Source of the DNA: a virus
Taxonomy: Duplodnaviria > Caudoviricetes
Direction: 5' to 3' (one strand)
Virus record (IMG/VR): IMGVR_UViG_3300048572_000043
Span: 37,857-101,856 of that record
DNA: 64,000 nucleotides
The notes beneath the pieces are model-generated. The model did not search any database. It had not been told where the DNA came from and saw nothing but the letters and a program-made list of their open reading frames with translations. Every line of letters begins with the position of its first letter. Position 1 is the first letter of the stretch. Below, one piece after another: positions 76-52,012 of the stretch. The position numbers were made by a program, and so were the translations under genes.

Positions 76-1062
76 ATGTTTAAATATATACTTGGATTAT
101 CAGCTTTTCTACTAGCTTCTTGTGCTGCATTTTTTTCAGTCAAAGGAATAGCTCTTTTATTCGCAGCTAGTTTTTGGAGCGTTGCAATAATGGCTGGAAG
201 TTTAGAAGTAGCTAAATTAGTTAGCGCAAGCTATCTTTATAGATACTGGTCAGTAATACATGATTTGCTTAAAAAATACATGTTATCTGCTACTATATTA
301 CTTATGTGCATAACAAGTCTTGGTATCTTTGGTTTTCTTTCTGATGCTTTTCAACGTAATTTCTCTCAATATTCTTTAAACTTAAATAAAATTCAAAGTT
401 TAAAATCTCAACAAAACTTCTATATATCTCAAATAGATTTCAATAAAAATAAATTAAAAGATCTTATAGAATTGCAAAAGACATATCAAACATCTTTAGA
501 TAATGCTGTTAAACAAGATGTTACTACAACTAAAACCACTGGCGGAGGATTCTTTAGTTCAGCTAAAACCGAAAAAGTAACAGACATTAAATTAGTAGAA
601 AGCAAGAATAAGATCATTGAAGGATCTCAAAGCAATATTAATAATTTATTCTCTCAAATATCCACGGTAACTTCTGATCTTCAAAATCTAGAAAAACAAA
701 GTTTAGAGAATAGCCAAGAAATAATGAAGCTCGAAAGTGATAATACTAAAGGTGAAATTGGCACATTTAAATTTGTAGCAGATGCATTTGGATTAAAAAT
801 AGAAACTGCTGTTAGAATATTTATTATATTAATTGTTATTGTTTTTGATCCACTAGCAGTATGTTTGGTTATAGCCTATAATTCAATGATTAAGAAAATA
901 GAAAATCAAGAAGCGCCAAAACCAGAACAAAAGATTCAAAATATTATAGAAAAACCACTAGATACTTTTAAAGCTATATATGAGAACCTACATAAGAATT
1001 TTAAACGCGGAACAAAGACTGAACATAATCCAGACTTAGCGGATCCAAGTTTGACACAATAA
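76..1062 (+). CDS. Membrane protein with long coiled coil (3 N-terminal TM helices, 1 C-terminal TM helix), conserved phage hypothetical
   Basis: Hydrophobic N-terminal segments, central Q/N/K/E heptads, IFIILIVIVFDPLAV helix; GTGTA motif 9 nt upstream. Confidence 0.7.
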   Translation: MFKYILGLSAFLLASCAAFFSVKGIALLFAASFWSVAIMAGSLEVAKLVSASYLYRYWSVIHDLLKKYMLSATILLMCITSLGIFGFLSDAFQRNFSQYSLNLNKIQSLKSQQNFYISQIDFNKNKLKDLIELQKTYQTSLDNAVKQDVTTTKTTGGGFFSSAKTEKVTDIKLVESKNKIIEGSQSNINNLFSQISTVTSDLQNLEKQSLENSQEIMKLESDNTKGEIGTFKFVADAFGLKIETAVRIFIILIVIVFDPLAVCLVIAYNSMIKKIENQEAPKPEQKIQNIIEKPLDTFKAIYENLHKNFKRGTKTEHNPDLADPSLTQ

Positions 1063-1081
1063 GTATTGTGTATATAATATT

Positions 1082-2329
1082 ATGAGCTGCAATTGTTTAG
1101 AGCCTGTTATATTTTCATTAAGCGCTACGACATCTCAAGCGAAAGTTGGCTTTTCATGTTTGAATGGTCAAGGTAGTCAAAAATATCTTAATTTTAGCGC
1201 AAATGGCAGTAGTTACAGATCGGGTTATTCAACAAACAATCCAGGCACATGGACAGATGACTGGACGTACAATACGATAAAACAATCTAGATATATTTAT
1301 ATGGTACAGGAATATGGTATAATTACAGTTTATGAAGATAAGAATTTTATATATCAAGGTACATATGATATATATGATGGCGATTCTTTCAACCTCTATA
1401 CAGATGCTACATTAACTACTAATCCTCCAGGGATCCAATGTGAAATTGTTGATGAAGAAGATCCTGTTTTAGTACCAGTTGTAATTGAAGCAGAAGATGT
1501 TCTAACTGGACCTACTGAAGCAGGTTTACTTGAGGCTGAATTTTGTACTTCTCAGATAATAAATTGTCAGTTTGTTGGTCGACCAGCCTCATGTAGCTCT
1601 AATAATTGTTACAATATAGACGAATGCTTTGAAGGGAGTTGTGATGGACCTGAAATATCATGTCAAGCTGGGACTGCTACCCCGACTTGTGGGGATCCTT
1701 GTGATCGATCTATACAATGCACTAGTGGACGAACTAAGTATAATAATGATTATGTTTATTATGATTGTAGGTTTTCCGCCTCAAATGGATACGAAGAAAC
1801 CAAAAACACGCTTAGGAATTTAAGTAATCGAGCCTTAGCAAATGAAGTGACAGATGATTTTGTATATCAAATATGCAAAGAATCTACTACTAAAAAAATA
1901 CAAAAATTAAAAACTAACATAATTGGTACTTGTGAACCATTAACGAACCCTGATGAGAATTGGAGTTCATTTAGTAACGGTATTGTAGTTTCAGCTAAAG
2001 TTGTTAATAATATACCAACAGCTCAACAAGCAATTTTTAGAGTTTGTGTGCCTAAAGAAAATGTGGATAAAAGCATTGAAGTAAAAGGAAAGTTTTATCT
2101 TTATATAGGTGCAACTTGTGCGTCTTGTTGTGTGGATGAAGATAACTTTGGTGGAACCATAGTAGCCACAGAGCCTGTAACAATCTTTCCTAATAATAGT
2201 CCAATTATGATAAAAGGAGGCATTGAATATTTTTATAAAGATGTGCAAATCACTTACCATAATGGTACATATTCTCAATACGCTGGACAAACAATAGACG
2301 CTTGTTTTACTTTAATTTCTTTGAAATAA
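1082..2329 (+). CDS. Cys-rich hypothetical protein, possibly virion-associated
   Basis: 415-aa ORF with about 22 Cys, starts MSCNC, no signal peptide; GTGTA motif upstream. Confidence 0.6.
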   Translation: MSCNCLEPVIFSLSATTSQAKVGFSCLNGQGSQKYLNFSANGSSYRSGYSTNNPGTWTDDWTYNTIKQSRYIYMVQEYGIITVYEDKNFIYQGTYDIYDGDSFNLYTDATLTTNPPGIQCEIVDEEDPVLVPVVIEAEDVLTGPTEAGLLEAEFCTSQIINCQFVGRPASCSSNNCYNIDECFEGSCDGPEISCQAGTATPTCGDPCDRSIQCTSGRTKYNNDYVYYDCRFSASNGYEETKNTLRNLSNRALANEVTDDFVYQICKESTTKKIQKLKTNIIGTCEPLTNPDENWSSFSNGIVVSAKVVNNIPTAQQAIFRVCVPKENVDKSIEVKGKFYLYIGATCASCCVDEDNFGGTIVATEPVTIFPNNSPIMIKGGIEYFYKDVQITYHNGTYSQYAGQTIDACFTLISLK

Positions 2330-2357
2330 TATAATTACCGTTTTACGCACAAACATT

Positions 2358-2537
2358 TTAATATTTTTTAATTCTATAATTCTTATTAGAAGGATCTATT
2401 TTAAGAATATGAGCTTTAGCTTTTAATAAACCTTCTTTAGATGGAGGAAATACTCCATGAAGAAAGTTATCACTTTTGCTGTAAACAGCGTAGTATTTAG
2501 CTTGTTTCGTCTTTTTTAGTTTGTTCTTCTTTTTCAT
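2358..2537 (-). CDS. Small basic hypothetical protein (59 aa, not in ORF track)
   Basis: Manual translation MKKKNKLKKTKQAKYYAVYSKSDNFLHGVFPPSKEG...; overlaps the end of the SEC-C gene. Confidence 0.45.
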   Translation of the reverse strand: MKKKNKLKKTKQAKYYAVYSKSDNFLHGVFPPSKEGLLKAKAHILKIDPSNKNYRIKKY

Positions 2538-2748
2538 TTACCATTTTCATAAGATGCTCTTTTAGAGAGTCTTTAGCTTTTTCACAAAAATCTTGATTTA
2601 ACTTACCACAACAATGTTTGAACTTTTTACCAGTAGATGGACAAACCATATTTCTTGGTACTTTTGGATATATTCTTACTATTGGACTAAATTCAGTTGC
2701 TCTAGCATATTCAATTGAGGTTAGTTTATCTATATTGTCTTTGTTCAT
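2497..2748 (-). CDS. SEC-C motif zinc-binding protein
   Basis: VPRNMVCPSTGKKFKHCCG resembles the SEC-C motif (RNxxCPCGSGKKYKxCC). Confidence 0.7.
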   Translation of the reverse strand: MNKDNIDKLTSIEYARATEFSPIVRIYPKVPRNMVCPSTGKKFKHCCGKLNQDFCEKAKDSLKEHLMKMVNEKEEQTKKDETS

Positions 2749-2785
2749 ATTATATTGTACTGAATTAAGTGTAAATTTCTAATAT

Positions 2786-3493
2786 ATGCCATGCGCTTTA
2801 ACAGAACCAGGAAATTATCCAGATTATCTTAAACGTATTCTTAAAACGATAGCTGTTGGAAATGATACCGATTTAAAAACTTGTGCATGCTCTTTAAGAT
2901 CTCCGCTAACGACTGAGGGTTGCCCAGCAATAGGTGGAGATGGAAAGATTGGAGCTTTCCCATTTTGCACACAAGAAAGCGCAGACAGTAAATATGCAAT
3001 ATGGCCTTTGGAAAAGGCCATGGAAACCTATTGGCGCGTAAGGGCTTGGGACTTTAGCGCAGCAGTAACAGTAAAACCTTTTGAAGATGACGAATTTTTG
3101 GTTACAACCTCCATAAAAAACATTAGAAGCGCAGCTAATAAAGAGTCAGACCTAGTGTGTTTTAATGAGTTTGTAGACCCAGAAGAGGCCTATAAATCCG
3201 CAGATATATTTTTCGGCCCCCTTTCTTTCGGAAACCAATTTTTACAAAAAGTAGATAATTTATATTACTCTGGTTTAGGGGGATATTTTTCTAATGATTT
3301 ATTCAATCCTTTAGTTGAACTAGAGTTTTCTTTTGGGGCAGATGTCAATATATATGGAAATGATTTTCCTTTTTCTGTTCTAGGGGCTAATTTAAAAATC
3401 AGCGTCAACGCTTATATGGAAGATCAGCCAGATTTTTACAACCCCGCTATCGGTTGTACGGCAAGTCTTACTCCGAGTTCATATTGGCCTTAA
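2786..3493 (+). CDS. MPCA-family protein, copy A (conserved Cys-rich N-terminus, variable body)
   Basis: MPCA...CACS...EGC...GKIGAFPFC N-terminus shared with ORFs at 12070, 13146 and 14037; ends YWP. Confidence 0.8.
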   Translation: MPCALTEPGNYPDYLKRILKTIAVGNDTDLKTCACSLRSPLTTEGCPAIGGDGKIGAFPFCTQESADSKYAIWPLEKAMETYWRVRAWDFSAAVTVKPFEDDEFLVTTSIKNIRSAANKESDLVCFNEFVDPEEAYKSADIFFGPLSFGNQFLQKVDNLYYSGLGGYFSNDLFNPLVELEFSFGADVNIYGNDFPFSVLGANLKISVNAYMEDQPDFYNPAIGCTASLTPSSYWP

Positions 3494-3533
3494 CCACGCA
3501 TAACACTGAATCTGAAATAAATTAAATAAAATC

Positions 3534-4643
3534 TCATTTTCCATGAGCGAATCCCTCATACATGCTATTTGGACTATTTCTAACTGCTTGTATAGTATTA
3601 TTCCATAGGCCACCGCGCATATCTTGTAAACTCCTAAATCCAAGATAACTCATAGAACTTCTTAAACCATTGGTAAAATCATATACAATATCTTCAATAG
3701 TTTTGTTTTCAATAATTGGAATCAAGGTATTATCACCCTCAACAAACAGATTCTTTTTAGTTCCATCGTACAAATCATAATCTTCAACAACATCTTGACT
3801 AGCCATTCCTCTATATTTAGCAAATCTTTTGCCATCTATTTCAATGATATTCTCGTCATCAACAACATCAGATAAGCCAGCAAAAATTCTCCCACAAATA
3901 ACAGCATCACATCCACTAGCAATAGCTTTAACTAAATCTTTCGGATATCTAATACCACCATCAGCAAGAATACTTGGCCTATGAGCTGGATTAGGTTTAT
4001 CTTGTTTAAATAAATCAATTTGAGAAAGCTCCCAATTTCTTACGGCTTTCCAAGCGTAATAATTTCCAGTTAAACTAGGGCATCCGATTCCAGTTTTAAC
4101 TTGAGTTAAACACATAGATCCTGGACCGATCAAATGTCTAAATCCATCTGCTTTTAAATTAGCAAGTCTATAAACACTCTCTTTAGTCAAAGTATTACCC
4201 ACGATAACATCTTGAGAAAATCCAGCCGTCTTATACCATCTTAAGAAATCTTCTACATTTTTAGCTAAACCATTAGCTGTGTCCAAGAAATAAAGATTAG
4301 TAAATGTATTTGTAGCTCTAATTCTTTCTTCTGCATCTTTTAGTCCAATCGCAGTAACGCAAAAATCGCTAGCATCTTTAATAAGTTTAGCTTTAGCTCT
4401 TTGATCATCAACAGACATAAATCTATGTAAAACTCCAGCCGCTCCAAGTTTATTCATTTTAATACACGACTTAACAGAAGATACTGTATCCATTGGCGAA
4501 AGCAATATTGGAATTTTTATATTGCAGTTTCTTGATATCTTAGTAGTGGTATCTACTTCTTTTCTGGAAGTGATGTCTGAAAAATTTGGAAGTAACGAAA
4601 TATCATCGTAACTTAAGGCTTCTTTAAATTCTTGTTTTTGCAT
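3534..4643 (-). CDS. guaB: IMP dehydrogenase / GMP reductase family oxidoreductase without CBS domains
   Basis: LSYDDISLLP, SPMDTV, IGPGSMCLT catalytic-Cys loop, ADGGIR, YRGMAS, VEG and GLRSSMSY motifs; IMPDH versus GMPR not resolved. Confidence 0.85.
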   Translation of the reverse strand: MQKQEFKEALSYDDISLLPNFSDITSRKEVDTTTKISRNCNIKIPILLSPMDTVSSVKSCIKMNKLGAAGVLHRFMSVDDQRAKAKLIKDASDFCVTAIGLKDAEERIRATNTFTNLYFLDTANGLAKNVEDFLRWYKTAGFSQDVIVGNTLTKESVYRLANLKADGFRHLIGPGSMCLTQVKTGIGCPSLTGNYYAWKAVRNWELSQIDLFKQDKPNPAHRPSILADGGIRYPKDLVKAIASGCDAVICGRIFAGLSDVVDDENIIEIDGKRFAKYRGMASQDVVEDYDLYDGTKKNLFVEGDNTLIPIIENKTIEDIVYDFTNGLRSSMSYLGFRSLQDMRGGLWNNTIQAVRNSPNSMYEGFAHGK

Positions 4644-15342: not shown

Positions 15343-15429
15343 GGAACGATGGCTGAGTGGTCTAAAGCAGAAGTTTACTAAACTTCCGATGGTTAACTCC
15401 ATCCGTAGGTTCGAATCCTACTCGTTCCG
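15343..15429 (+). tRNA. tRNA-Ser with unusual ACU anticodon (type II, long variable arm)
   Basis: GGAACGA/TCGTTCC acceptor, G discriminator, GAAGT-TTACTAA-ACTTC anticodon arm, GATGG/CCATC variable stem, GTAGG-TTCGAAT-CCTAC T-arm. Confidence 0.88.
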
Positions 15430-48186: not shown

Positions 48187-48614
48187 CACAATGACATATA
48201 AATGTGCAGTAAGCGGTGAAGCAATTTCACCAGAGAGAGTTGAGGCTCTGCAAGTCCTCGGCGTTCCAGAGAGTCAATGGACAAAGAAAGAACATAGTCA
48301 AACAAGAAAACTACGAGCTGTATATGCTGGTGATGATGGCAGTAATGACATCGTTATTTGTGATGCAGTAGATGGTGGCTCGATGTTTGATAATGCAGTA
48401 GCATTGGAGGTAGAAAATGAATCTTAAGTATATCGTTTTGAGAGATGGAATTCGTGTGAGTGAAGATATGCACTCGAAGATTGAAGATGCTGAACACGAA
48501 GCGGAGTTTTGGCGTAAAGTCATTCGCTCGTGGCCTGATGGAACGAAAGTTACCATCAAGAAAATCGGCGGATAACTTCGGAGGCCGACATTGAGCTACG
48601 GCTTGATGTTAGTT

Positions 48615-48705
48615 GCTAGGGTCGTCTAACTGGTTAAGACCCCACACTTATAATGTGGTCGCTCTAGATTTGGGCAAAATGTAGGTTCGAATCCTACCCC
48701 TAGTA
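48615..48705 (+). tRNA. tRNA with Ile(UAU) anticodon and a long (22-nt) variable region
   Basis: GCTAGGG/CCCTAGT acceptor, A discriminator, CCACA-CTTATAA-TGTGG anticodon arm, GCTC/GGGC variable stem, GTAGG-TTCGAAT-CCTAC. Confidence 0.85.
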
Positions 48706-48978
48706 TGATTATTATATGTAAGTCGTTGAGAATCATCTAATTATTTTTATTGACATTTTTTCAAAGTATTGTATATTTAACCTATGACAAACAAACAATC
48801 AGTTCCATTCTATGTGGTGAATGTGTTCGGTAAAGATCGAGCCATCATCCTAAACACCTCAATCCGTATGTGTACGCCAAAAGAAACTTGCTCTATCAGA
48901 GACTTGGAGAATATCGCCAAGGCTTTTGCAGTAGAGTTCTTTCAAGTACCAAAACCTTCTAGCTTTCCTGCCAAAGTG

Positions 48979-49727: not shown

Positions 49728-50130
49728 AAATATTTTCTCTAAATAAAAAATAATATGTAAAGTCTCTATGTGAGAAATGTTTTTGAGAAATTTGGTTTAG
49801 AGTTTTTCGTTTTGAGTTTAATGTTAATAATCTCTTGGGGTGGAATCGAAAAGATACTGAAAATTATAATTACACATCTAAAATAAGATTTGCCAAATAT
49901 CTAATAGGATATAATAAATAGTTGAAATATTTCTTAAATACTTGTAATATATATTGATATGAAAAGCGAAAACAGATTAAGCAAAATACTTGAGAAAAGA
50001 ATCTTAAGAGATGAAGATCCTAAGACCATAGCTCAAATAGATAAGTTCTTAAATAATTTAGAAGTTGTTTTCGTGAAGTGGGCTAAAGCTCATCCCAATT
50101 GGAAAGAATCAGAAGAATAATTAAACTGTT

Positions 50131-50208
50131 ATAAGTTACTGATACTCAAAGAGTTACAAAAGACGGATCCCTGCGCACGTAAGTCGTTGACCATCAACGA
50201 GATTTAAC
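50131..50208. repeat. 75-bp double-palindrome element, copy 3
   Basis: 21-bp spacer with GGATCCCTGC; right arm TCAACGAGATTTAAC faces the next promoter. Confidence 0.9.
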
Positions 50209-50565
50209 TAAAGATTTTTCTTGTGAAAAAACAAAGGTATGGTATATTTAACCTATGAACAAAATCAAAAACGCAGTTATATACTTAACCTCATATCTGA
50301 AACACTTCGTCCTTTTCCTTTTTGGGCAAAGGTATTTAATCGAATACAAACCTTACGGCAAGGATGATGTTTATACTTACATCATCAGCAAGCCTTCTTC
50401 TCATACCATCAGCAAGGCAGGGAATAAGCTATTCACTAGCTTCTGCTTTTCTGGTCGTATGGATTCTGGCGTGAAGCAATTCCGCTATGATAGAATTACT
50501 GGCGGTCTCTCACCAGTATAACAACAGAGAGAAAAGGGGCGTTTCTTTTTCTCCCCTCATATAGA

Positions 50566-50596
50566 AAGGGCGAGGAGTAAAATCCTCGCCTTTTTT
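50566..50596 (+). terminator. Rho-independent terminator
   Basis: AAGGGCGAGGA/TCCTCGCCTTT hairpin followed by a T-run. Confidence 0.85.
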
Positions 50597-50629
50597 ATTG
50601 CACATAAACAAAAGTATGTTAAGATAGTT

Positions 50630-50847
50630 TTAGTTCTTCGATATCAGAGAAGGTTGACCGCAAGGTTGCAGTTCTGGAAAGTTTCTAATGGAAACATTAG
50701 TTATATATAACGGAATGCCAATACTTCTCGAGCGAGCCTGACTAACTCCATAAGAGGATGAACCTGCCAACGCCCAGAGTCTGAGGCAAATTAAAAGAGC
50801 AGGGTATTTCCTTTACGAATCTAGAGCGTAAAGGGTCGAAGAACTAA
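50630..50847 (+). ncRNA. About 218-nt structured ncRNA candidate
   Basis: 12-bp terminal stem TTAGTTCTTCGA/TCGAAGAACTAA, internal GNRA hairpins, promoter TTGCAC-N16-TAAGAT upstream. Confidence 0.7.
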
Positions 50848-51023
50848 TTTTTATTACGCCATTTTTCTCTGTGATTGAAAACCCAACTTAACAGAGCTTT
50901 TTCAAAACCAATATCTTTGCCAGCTTTTTCGCTTTCGAGCCATTTGTGTTTTAAGATTTCATCTCGTTCTTCAATAAACTTTTTATACAACGCAGAAGTT
51001 TCAAGTAAACCAGATACCTTCAT
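50844..51023 (-). CDS. Short DUF4032-like protein (59 aa, not in ORF track)
   Basis: Manual translation ...SALYKKFIEERDEILKHKWLESEKAGKDIGFEKALLSW...HREKWR; GTGTA 9 nt upstream. Confidence 0.7.
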   Translation of the reverse strand: MKVSGLLETSALYKKFIEERDEILKHKWLESEKAGKDIGFEKALLSWVFNHREKWRNKN

Positions 51024-51061
51024 AACTTATATTACACTATATTGCTTTTAAATCAAGATTT

Positions 51062-51140
51062 TTATCTCTCTTATAGTCAAGGACTTACAACGCGAGGGTC
51101 CCTACAGTTCTAAGTCGTTGATATTCAATGAAATTTAAAT
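51062..51140. repeat. 75-bp double-palindrome element, copy 4
   Basis: TCAAGGACTTAC, 21-bp spacer (GGGTCCC), CTAAGTCGTTGA-TAT-TCAATGAAATTTAAAT. Confidence 0.85.
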
Positions 51141-51175
51141 GTAGACAAAAAACAAAATTCTGATATATTTAAGCT

Positions 51176-52012
51176 ATGAAAGTAAACGAAATTATCACCG
51201 AAAAGTTCATCGAAGCCCTCAACAAAGGAGTCATCCCTTGGCAGAAACCTTGGAAAGTTTTTGACCTATGCAACGGAGTTTCCAAAAAAGGTTATAGAGG
51301 CATCAATCAATTTTTACTTCGCATGGTCGCCTCTGATGATTTCTTTTTTACTTTTAATCAGATTAAAGAACTTGGCGGAAGAATCAAAAAAGGTGCAAAG
51401 TCCCATATGGTAGTTTATTACAAACTATTAAAGAAGAAAGATGATGAGTCAGGTGGCTTTCCTCTTATGAGATTCTATAAAGTTTTTGGTTTGAGTGATA
51501 TTGAGGGCATGAAGTGGAAACAGCCCGAAGTAAAGAAGTTGGATTTCTCACCAGTAGAAGAAGCAGAAAAGTTAATCAACAAGTGCGTGATTCAGATTAA
51601 GTATGGTGGCAGTCGTGCCTGTTACTATCCAGAAGATCACAAGATTGATTTGCCCCCAAAAGAAAATTTCAACAGCGTTGAGGAGTATTACTCGACAGCG
51701 TTCCATGAGATTGGCCACGCTATGCATAAAAGCACAGGTGATAATGTTAAGAATGGTTTTGGTTCTCAGAATTATAGCAAAGAGGAATTGACCGCAGAGA
51801 TTTTTGCGAGTCTTTGTCTTAACTTCTGTGGGATTGATTCTCAAAAATGTTTTAACAATTCTGCCAGCTATCTTTCCAGTTGGTTAGAAGTATTAAAAAA
51901 AGATACAAACTTTATCATCTCAGCTTCTAGTAAAGCACAAAAAAGATTTGACGCTTTCGTTGAGAGAAAAGAAAGCGAAGAGATTCAAGAAGAAGAAGTT
52001 GTAACTGCTTAA
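51176..52012 (+). CDS. ardC: ArdC-like antirestriction protein (ssDNA-binding domain plus zincin-like domain)
   Basis: PWQKPW, YRGIN, TFNQ...GG.IKKG.K, A.Y.P..H.I.LP...F, HEIGH, YSKEELTAE, SASYL.SW. Confidence 0.88.
   Translation: MKVNEIITEKFIEALNKGVIPWQKPWKVFDLCNGVSKKGYRGINQFLLRMVASDDFFFTFNQIKELGGRIKKGAKSHMVVYYKLLKKKDDESGGFPLMRFYKVFGLSDIEGMKWKQPEVKKLDFSPVEEAEKLINKCVIQIKYGGSRACYYPEDHKIDLPPKENFNSVEEYYSTAFHEIGHAMHKSTGDNVKNGFGSQNYSKEELTAEIFASLCLNFCGIDSQKCFNNSASYLSSWLEVLKKDTNFIISASSKAQKRFDAFVERKESEEIQEEEVVTA

Follow-up and report, generated by a model that had tools for sequence, protein, structure and literature searches.

A Conserved Structured RNA From the tRNA Island of a T4-Like Freshwater Phage, With a Loop That Appears to Be Under Selection to Stay Self-Complementary

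Introduction

Phage T4 carries the small stable non-coding RNAs (ncRNAs) RNAC and RNAD, also called species 1 and 2, of 119-139 nucleotides (nt), in its tRNA cluster and on the same strand as the tRNAs. Their roles are still called unknown, and one paper classes them as late (PMC9697503; PMC3014915). ROOL and GOLLD are phage or prophage RNAs that often lie near tRNA islands and self-assemble through kissing loops, and their function is given as unknown (PMC12286853). Here we describe an RNA of about 218 nt at positions 50630-50847 (+ strand) of a 64,000-nt stretch, hereafter the window, which comes from a 101,856-base-pair (bp) IMG/VR virus record (IMGVR_UViG_3300048572_000043). The RNA is a member of a conserved structured-RNA family and belongs to the tRNA island of a T4-like freshwater phage, a setting that an earlier first-pass annotation of the window had overlooked. 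One of its loops, in the helix that we name P6, appears to be under selection to stay self-complementary.

We propose, with a probability of roughly 60%, that this locus is the gene of a stable, trans-acting and probably homodimeric structured ncRNA, of which an invariant surface formed by helices P3, P4 and P5 binds a partner. Fremin et al. (2023) obtained 8,495 unnamed candidate structured RNAs from IMG/VR via intergenic covariation, tRNA-like ones included (PMC10690425). The passages of that paper at hand describe no such RNA, tRNA-island context or palindromic loop; the family may nevertheless already be among the 8,495 candidates. A search of open-access full-text literature found no paper describing the RNA.

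The Window RNA and Its Fold

The helices of the window RNA and the features between them are as follows, in the order of the paired elements.

50630-50641 (+): 5' strand of the terminal stem P1, TTAGTTCTTCGA, in perfect 12-bp pairing with 50836-50847; the stem covaries in relatives, e.g. L050, L037, L047 and L062
50836-50847 (+): 3' strand of P1, TCGAAGAACTAA, followed by a T-run at 50848-50852
50642-50645 (+): possible 5' strand of P2, UAUC, pairing with GAUG at 50757-50760; proposed by homology to the P2 of short forms, weak, and invariant among long forms
50646-50730 (+): expansion domain specific to long forms, a three-way junction closed by GAGAAG/CUUCUC; from the fold and the comparison of long forms, missing from the 130-nt short forms
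50647-50652 with 50724-50729 (+): closing stem of the expansion domain, GAGAAG/CTTCTC, read in the sequence
50657-50666 (+): GNRA hairpin ACC-GCAA-GGU within the expansion domain
50685-50700 (+): distal GNRA hairpin CUAAUG-GAAA-CAUUAG within the expansion domain
50734-50748 (+): P3 hairpin GAG/CUC with the loop motif UGACU at 50739-50743; the stem covaries
50749-50762 (+): junction CAUAAGAG, then the 3' strand of P2 and GAA; a conserved block in alignments A1 and A4
50763-50803 (+): P4, CCUGC (50763-50767) with GCAGG (50799-50803), enclosing P5; from the minimum free energy (MFE) fold and covariation
50769-50787 (+): P5 in the most conserved block, AAYGCCCAGAGUCNGAGGC, where GCC(C)/(G)-A-GGC closes an apical AGAGUCN loop; invariant columns
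50772-50787 (+): helix GCC-CAG/CTG-A-GGC inside the P4 stem, read in the sequence
50810-50834 (+): P6 hairpin CCUUUACG/CGUAAAGG with the 9-nt loop AAUCUAGAG, which holds the palindrome UCUAGA at 50820-50825; all 9 pairs change on both sides
50810-50817 with 50827-50834 (+): P6 strands CCTTTACG and CGTAAAGG, read in the sequence

The first-pass annotation had proposed a real, structured and multi-branched RNA on the strength of the perfect 12-bp terminal stem and of several internal helices (GAGAAG/CTTCTC with its two GNRA hairpins, CCTGC/GCAGG and the two P6 strands). All of these are present in the sequence, and the proposal is borne out by these helices together with the MFE fold and the covariation across homologues. 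The MFE fold has an energy of -64.0 kcal/mol (z = -3.39, with none of 200 shuffles as good) and recovers the same helices. The reverse strand has a comparable fold (z = -3.65), and energy alone therefore neither proves an RNA nor picks its strand; covariation across homologues settles both points.

The core of the family is a 130-nt four-way junction with P1, P2-P3, P4-P5 and P6 as its arms. Most members have this short form (about 130 nt), in which P4 is GCCCC/GGUGGG. The long form, found in the window and in eight other distinct sequences, carries a domain of about 85 nt between the 5' strand of P2 and P3, and P2 is there shrunk to the possible UAUC/GAUG pairing. The window copy is thus an expanded form of the 130-nt core, which the earlier reading had not recognised. 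One member, L024, has insertions that differ from those of the others.

Homologues and Source Phage

The phage of the window encodes rIIA, NrdA/B and a DNA ligase and has a genome of about 170 kb; on the basis of these genes it is called T4-like. The RNA occurs once in the 101,856-bp record and exactly once in a 171,916-bp relative record rated 100% complete. A blastn search with 341 nt around the RNA gave no match among GenBank phages, a set from which records of the window's own genome may be absent. Relatives were fetched through the neighbouring ArdC-like gene, which gave 25 loci, and blastn found a homologue of the RNA in 20 of them.

Scans with conserved words widened this set. With the most conserved 19-mer, 37 of 39 stretches from IMG/VR were true homologues and the other two were GC-rich chance matches. 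A 16-mer scan of metagenome contigs yielded at least 19 true homologues (19 among the 118 stretches listed; blastn and the covariance model R1, described below). The same scan of bacterial genome contigs gave none among the 120 stretches listed (blastn) and none among the 82 searched with R1; most stretches from the 16-mer scans of the two collections were chance matches. An exact pattern from the P3 region had 0 matches in the viral contig collection, and a gapped pattern from the 3' side found, among the matches listed, only chance matches in coding sequence. A pattern from the 5' side brought one further variant, L324, while its 16 other new stretches were not the RNA. R1 had no match in two fragmentary records of ArdC relatives (36% and 41% complete).

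Covariation and Choice of Strand

The first-pass annotation had named homologues and covariation as one way to check its candidate, and the signal is strong. R1 was built from 21 short forms and aligned 42 matches, of which 41 are distinct sequences. In this alignment 95.7% of 1,442 cells fall in standard pairs, and sliding the partners by 1-3 columns lowers this share to 37.8-52.5%. The alignment is, however, fitted to the model's own structure, which favours that structure. Both sides have changed in 21 of the 36 core pairs, and none of 500 shuffles matched the observed pairing, the both-side changes or the covariation score. A separate run of MAFFT and RNAalifold on the short forms gave compensatory changes in 15 of the 36 pairs.

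All helices except the core of P5 contribute. The P2 of short forms occurs as CAAGG/CCUUG, CAAUG/CAUUG, CAGUAC/GUACUG and CAAGCG/CGCUUG, and the P3 stem as GGAG/CUCC, GAGGA/UCCUC, GGGU/GCCC and GUGGU/ACCAC. The closing pair of P5 covaries between U-A and C-G, and each of the 9 pairs of P6 has changed on both sides somewhere in the family. In the distal hairpin of the long forms three pairs change on both sides (CUAAUG/CAUUAG, CCAAUG/CAUUGG, UCAAUG/CAUUGA, CCAAUA/UAUUGG), and the tetraloops of the long forms keep to GNRA with changed letters (GAAA, GCAA or GAGA in one, GCAA, GAAA or GUAA in the other). G-U intermediates are numerous. Since the G-U pairs fit, and the tetraloops are GNRA, on the + strand only, the RNA strand is the + strand. 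A scan of all column pairs for tertiary or pseudoknot pairs returned 160 pairs, which were dominated by the split between the long and short clades, and it was too noisy to resolve tertiary pairs.

The P6 Palindrome and the P3/P5 Module

The P6 loop carries a Watson-Crick palindrome of at least 6 nt in 38 of the 41 distinct sequences: UCUAGA or UUCUAGAA in 32 and UCAUGA in 6. The hexamer of L224, UCUAGG, is still self-complementary by way of G-U ends; in L037 and L062 P6 is remodelled and its apical loop carries GUCGAC, and the later variant L324 has UCCGGA. A near-identical relative, L007, shares 98.6% of the window RNA, and of the three differences between them two make up a UA-to-AU swap in the P6 hexamer. 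Since no loop can pair with itself inside a single hairpin, selection for self-complementarity points to pairing between two copies. The switching between palindromes, which the first-pass annotation did not remark on, suggests a symmetric kissing-loop homodimer. In the energy model the dimer, joined by P6 as an extended duplex, is preferred (-140.6 kcal/mol against 2 x -64.0 kcal/mol). Kretsch et al. likewise took palindrome-switching loops as backing for symmetric intermolecular kissing loops in OLE and GOLLD (PMC12286853).

A block of about 25 nt stays invariant, as does the P3 loop, amid stems that vary. In a 30-sequence alignment the GACU of the P3 loop is invariant and the preceding U nearly so, and this GACU is complementary to the AGUC at the apex of P5. 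The position after AGUC is U, A or C; the inner A-U that folding programs draw there is paired in 37 sequences and not in 4, to which L324 adds an A-C. The inner pair is therefore not conserved, and P5 is better read as a short stem with a 7-nt loop. From these letters a loop-loop kiss between P3 and P5 is plausible, either within one molecule or between molecules.

Both loops also bear on a more ambitious reading, an RNA-only assembly of higher order, in which P6 contacts and P3/P5 contacts made hand in hand, as in phi29 pRNA, would build closed rings or cages that might act on tRNAs or ribosomes. The 130-nt core would then be the smallest natural self-assembling phage RNA and a miniature counterpart of ROOL and GOLLD, for example holding tRNAs or a host factor during infection. 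The niche near tRNA islands is common to these RNAs, the P6 loop switches between palindromes, P3 and P5 supply a second pair of mutually complementary and invariant loops, and the two GNRA tetraloops of the long form are elements typically used for docking. P3 and P5 may just as well pair within one molecule, however; with 130-218 nt the RNA is far below ROOL and GOLLD in length, and neither their Rfam models nor that of pRNA matched it. We consider such an assembly, and with it the role of the core as a miniature ROOL or GOLLD, unlikely.

Tests Against Known RNA Families

The candidate had been presented as lying outside known families, and Rfam 15 agrees with this. At gathering thresholds the only matches in the window are 6 tRNAs, none of them on the RNA, and a search of 50400-51100 at expectation values (E) up to 10 found nothing within it. 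The nearest Rfam matches are weak and centred on the flanking terminator or the convergent open reading frame (ORF), touching at most the ends of the RNA. On the loci of short forms, a search at E up to 1 gave nothing over the RNA.

ARAGORN finds 6 tRNAs in the window and calls neither a tRNA nor a tmRNA at 50630-50847, where the first-pass annotation had likewise not recognised a tmRNA; the Rfam tRNA matches likewise lie elsewhere. A 6S RNA was rejected in view of the four-way junction with its hairpin arms and kissing-type loops, with no 6S match at E up to 10. 6S RNA is a long and largely double-stranded rod whose central bubble imitates an open promoter, in contrast to the four-way junction of the window RNA. 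A retron ncRNA would share the terminal stem, but no reverse transcriptase domain was found among the neighbours (an 88-amino-acid (aa) ORF, a 59-aa DUF4032-like ORF, ArdC and a GP88-like protein). Homology to T4 rnaC and rnaD was tried with R1, filters off, on positions 68000-76000 of T4, and no match appeared over 70908-71171 at E up to 10.

Promoter, Terminator and tRNA-Island Context

Three features flank the RNA in the window.

50569-50596 (+): intrinsic terminator of the upstream 88-aa ORF, GGCGAGGA-loop-TCCTCGCC and then T6, read directly; kept upstream of the RNA in many relatives
50598-50625 (+): sigma-70-type promoter with -35 TTGCAC at 50598-50603, a 16-nt spacer and the extended -10 TG-n-TAAGAT at 50617-50625; comparative support
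50844-51023 (-): convergent 59-aa ORF, of which the stop overlaps the 3' end of the RNA by 4 nt, itself outside the RNA; weak match to DUF4032

The placement between a terminator and a convergent gene, behind a promoter of its own, had been noticed from the sequence alone, and it holds: the hairpin with T6 stands at 50569-50596 and the convergent ORF at 50844-51023. A generic scan listed the terminator hairpin on the - strand only, and it missed the promoter because its -35 matches at only 3 of 6 positions. The comparison of relatives supports the promoter. Of 42 distinct contexts, 35 have a -10 that stops exactly 6 nt short of AGUUC and is separated from a TTGnnn -35 by a spacer of 16-17 nt; at least four unrelated promoter sequences are used across these 35 contexts. 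Six more contexts combine a perfect TTGACA with an off-consensus -10. The predicted transcription start is near A50632, and in 33 of the 42 contexts P1 is followed by at least 4 T in a row.

In the window, promoters at 50221-50248, 50598-50625 and 51142-51169 (+) share an A-rich spacer pattern (AAAAACAAA..TATGnTAnnnT) and an extended -10, and judged by these letters they look like a phage-specific class of early promoter. The match of the 59-aa ORF to the C-terminal part of DUF4032 is borderline (E = 2.7e-5, 24.5 bits against a cut-off of 23.8); many relatives also keep this ORF after the RNA.

The sequence behind the RNA differs between relatives and may hold a convergent ORF, another promoter or, 7-9 nt away, a tRNA; with no fixed downstream gene, a cis-regulatory role is unlikely. 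tRNA genes were found in 37 of the 42 loci, and in all 37 the nearest one is on the strand of the RNA. It lies within 1 kb in 29 of the 42 loci and within 100 nt in 9. A tRNA is placed directly 3' of the RNA, 7-9 nt away, in 5 loci, and 41-46 nt upstream in 4 others. In the window four tRNA genes lie 0.9-2 kb upstream. One ARAGORN call, tRNA-Ile (anticodon tat) at 48614-48706 (+), heads the tRNA island across relatives and is unusually long (91-94 nt), so that it may have a long variable arm or an intron, or be a miscall. Elsewhere in the window, an 87-nt tRNA-Ser call at 15343-15429 (+) has the anticodon ACT with an unusual A at the wobble position.

Downstream of the RNA, the window encodes at 51176-52012 (+) an ArdC-like protein in which an ArdC domain at the N-terminus is joined to a zincin-like metallopeptidase domain. 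Among annotated phage proteins its nearest relatives share only 30-36% identity with it and come from Caulobacter, Brevundimonas and Pelagibacter phages.

Two observations from relatives concern the slot itself. Firstly, ArdC relatives that have no member of the RNA family hold a different multi-branched RNA of about 180 nt in the same place (L019:2820-3000 and L021:3459-3639, both +). Upstream ORF, terminator, promoter position and first ten nt (AGTTCTTTTC) are unchanged in this slot, and the same convergent ORF closes it; the RNA in it has a GCC-GAAA-GGC hairpin and no Rfam match at E below 0.1. An unrelated RNA in an identical promoter slot suggests an exchangeable locus for RNA cargo. Secondly, L050:119-249 (-) holds a nearly identical core in a phage contig of higher GC content, between two genes of the same direction and with no visible promoter. 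Its P1 is lengthened to about 18 bp, and P1 and P6 are both wholly re-paired in different letters. This copy looks like a horizontal transfer of the RNA; an Rfam search of L050 found nothing.

This context is where a role in anti-defence or host takeover has to be weighed, in which, as the first-pass annotation had suggested, the RNA would be a decoy that sequesters a host protein (for example a defence sensor, nuclease, RNA chaperone or tRNA-targeting enzyme) with the P3/P5 module as bait. The decoy is compatible with the trans-acting dimer that we prefer, and would be its functional endpoint. The promoter is of the early type, like those of the neighbouring small genes. Some phages use tRNA genes against tRNA-targeting defences, and the RNA stands among tRNA genes. 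It often adjoins the ArdC-like anti-restriction gene, although part of this adjacency comes from loci having been found through that gene. The turnover of cargo in the slot, with an unrelated multi-branched RNA in L019-L021, is typical of arms-race loci, and the core has moved into a phage of higher GC content with P1 and P6 fully re-paired. However, no Rfam model, 6S included, matched the RNA at E up to 10, and no homologue of host origin that it might mimic was found among the 120 genome stretches listed. A decoy is a tentative explanation that we hold to be possible but not probable.

Transcript Evidence

Of 24 sequencing runs listed, 18 are recorded as RNA libraries (freshwater, lake and river), and four of these, from four studies, were compared. 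All four had contigs over the RNA, covering 50648-50861 (1 other letter in 214), 50648-51021, 50656-50729 (0 other letters) and 50648-50821; strand, start and end are not shown by the contigs. In run X3 the word depth was 794-4431 on the RNA contigs and 132 over the upstream gene, a hint only, as contig depth cannot rank genes. Parts of the stretch had no contig cover, e.g. 50000-50150 and 51071-51170, and nothing is drawn from these gaps. A + strand promoter at conserved distance, a T-run and contigs from RNA libraries agree with the earlier suggestion of an independently transcribed RNA.

These data also bear on the question whether the locus is an RNA gene at all. It might act as DNA, as an origin, a recombination site or a protein-binding site, or be a bidirectional terminator or insulator, or a small ORF. 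TCTAGA, TCATGA and TCCGGA are palindromes in DNA as well, in the window convergent units flank the element, and by energy its reverse strand folds equally well. The contigs from RNA libraries, the promoter at fixed distance and the strand asymmetry of the G-U pairs and GNRA loops argue for an RNA instead. Furthermore, the flanks vary and include tRNAs and same-direction promoters, long and short forms differ by a block of about 85 nt, and the only ORF of at least 30 aa inside the element is on the - strand, with none on the + strand. We therefore disfavour this alternative and give it a very low probability.

Proposed Mechanism

In the mechanism that we propose, the RNA would be made early, starting near A50632, and its 3' end would fall at P1 with its U-run or shortly beyond, except in loci with a tRNA directly behind the RNA, in which 5' processing of that tRNA would produce it. 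The invariant UGACU of the P3 loop would kiss the invariant AGUC at the P5 apex and thereby set the fold, and the P6 palindrome would join two copies, through either an extended duplex or a symmetric kissing loop. The working surface for a partner, which may be a protein or an RNA of host or phage, would then be the invariant P3/P4/P5 module. As a dimer the RNA would work as a decoy or scaffold, and probably neither by base-pairing regulation nor in cis.

Several points weigh against this proposal. The kiss between P3 and P5 is beyond the reach of covariation because both motifs are invariant. The palindrome in P6 has made few independent switches, and from UA 3 of 9 double changes remain self-complementary; moreover, the hexamers are AU-rich and weak, at about -5 kcal/mol. 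No neighbouring gene accompanies the RNA across all loci and no obvious partner gene lies next to it, and the L050 copy is alone among the 42 contexts in having no visible promoter. The transcript data are assembled contigs, and DNA may occur in RNA libraries. Lastly, the contigs from three runs (three studies) begin at 50648, with adapter letters directly before one of them, which is 16 nt inside the predicted RNA and in the domain that only long forms have. This start may be a processing site, a stop of reverse transcription at the P1/P2 stack or an effect of assembly.

The shared contig start hints weakly at a defined RNA end and could imply a ribozyme or processing element, in which the invariant junction and loop nucleotides would be a catalytic core for self-cleavage or for processing of the tRNA-island transcript. 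Invariance of the block of about 25 nt and the P3 loop amid varying stems is as in catalytic cores, and a processing role would suit the loci with a tRNA directly 3' (5 of 42) and the 4 others with a tRNA just upstream. But 50648 is inside the domain that only long forms have and therefore cannot be a cleavage site of the whole family, one RNA-library contig runs unbroken over 50648-50861, and no Rfam ribozyme matched even at E up to 10. We regard a catalytic or processing role as improbable.

Comparison With Known Systems

The RNAs closest in setting are T4 RNAC and RNAD, which the window family resembles as small ncRNAs in a T4-type tRNA cluster on the strand of the tRNAs. They differ from it in that rnaC has a hairpin like the T-arm of a tRNA, whereas the window family has none, and RNAC and RNAD abut tRNA-Arg with no room for a promoter between, whereas the window RNA has its own early-type promoter. 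The small stable RNAs of the T4 tRNA cluster have had no known function for about fifty years.

For dimerization, two well-known RNAs offer a likeness. The pRNA of phi29 is a phage-encoded RNA of about 120-174 nt that oligomerises by loop-loop pairing between copies, to which the two mutually complementary loops of the window RNA, UGACU and AGUC, may be compared. It belongs to phi29-like podoviruses and docks on the portal, whereas the phage of the window is T4-like with about 170 kb and, to our knowledge, the packaging motor of T4-like phages needs no RNA. The dimerization initiation site (DIS) of human immunodeficiency virus 1 (HIV-1) has a 9-nt hairpin loop in which purines flank a 6-nt palindrome, a layout that resembles the window P6 loop AA-UCUAGA-G. 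The DIS is part of a viral genome leader and has GC-rich palindromes, in contrast to the separate small RNA of the window with its weak, AU-rich hexamers.

The likeness to ROOL, GOLLD and OLE is in the palindrome-switching loop, which in the window family is a pattern of sequence from which we infer an oligomer. ROOL and GOLLD exceed 600 nt and have many pseudoknots, whereas the window family spans 130-218 nt with a core of 130 nt, a length that suits in vitro transcription. The family comes in modular variants, namely the core, the core with the GNRA domain and the core in a different phage backbone. As a compact case among such RNAs from phage tRNA clusters and islands, it could show whether RNA-RNA assembly is general to the RNAs of phage tRNA islands.

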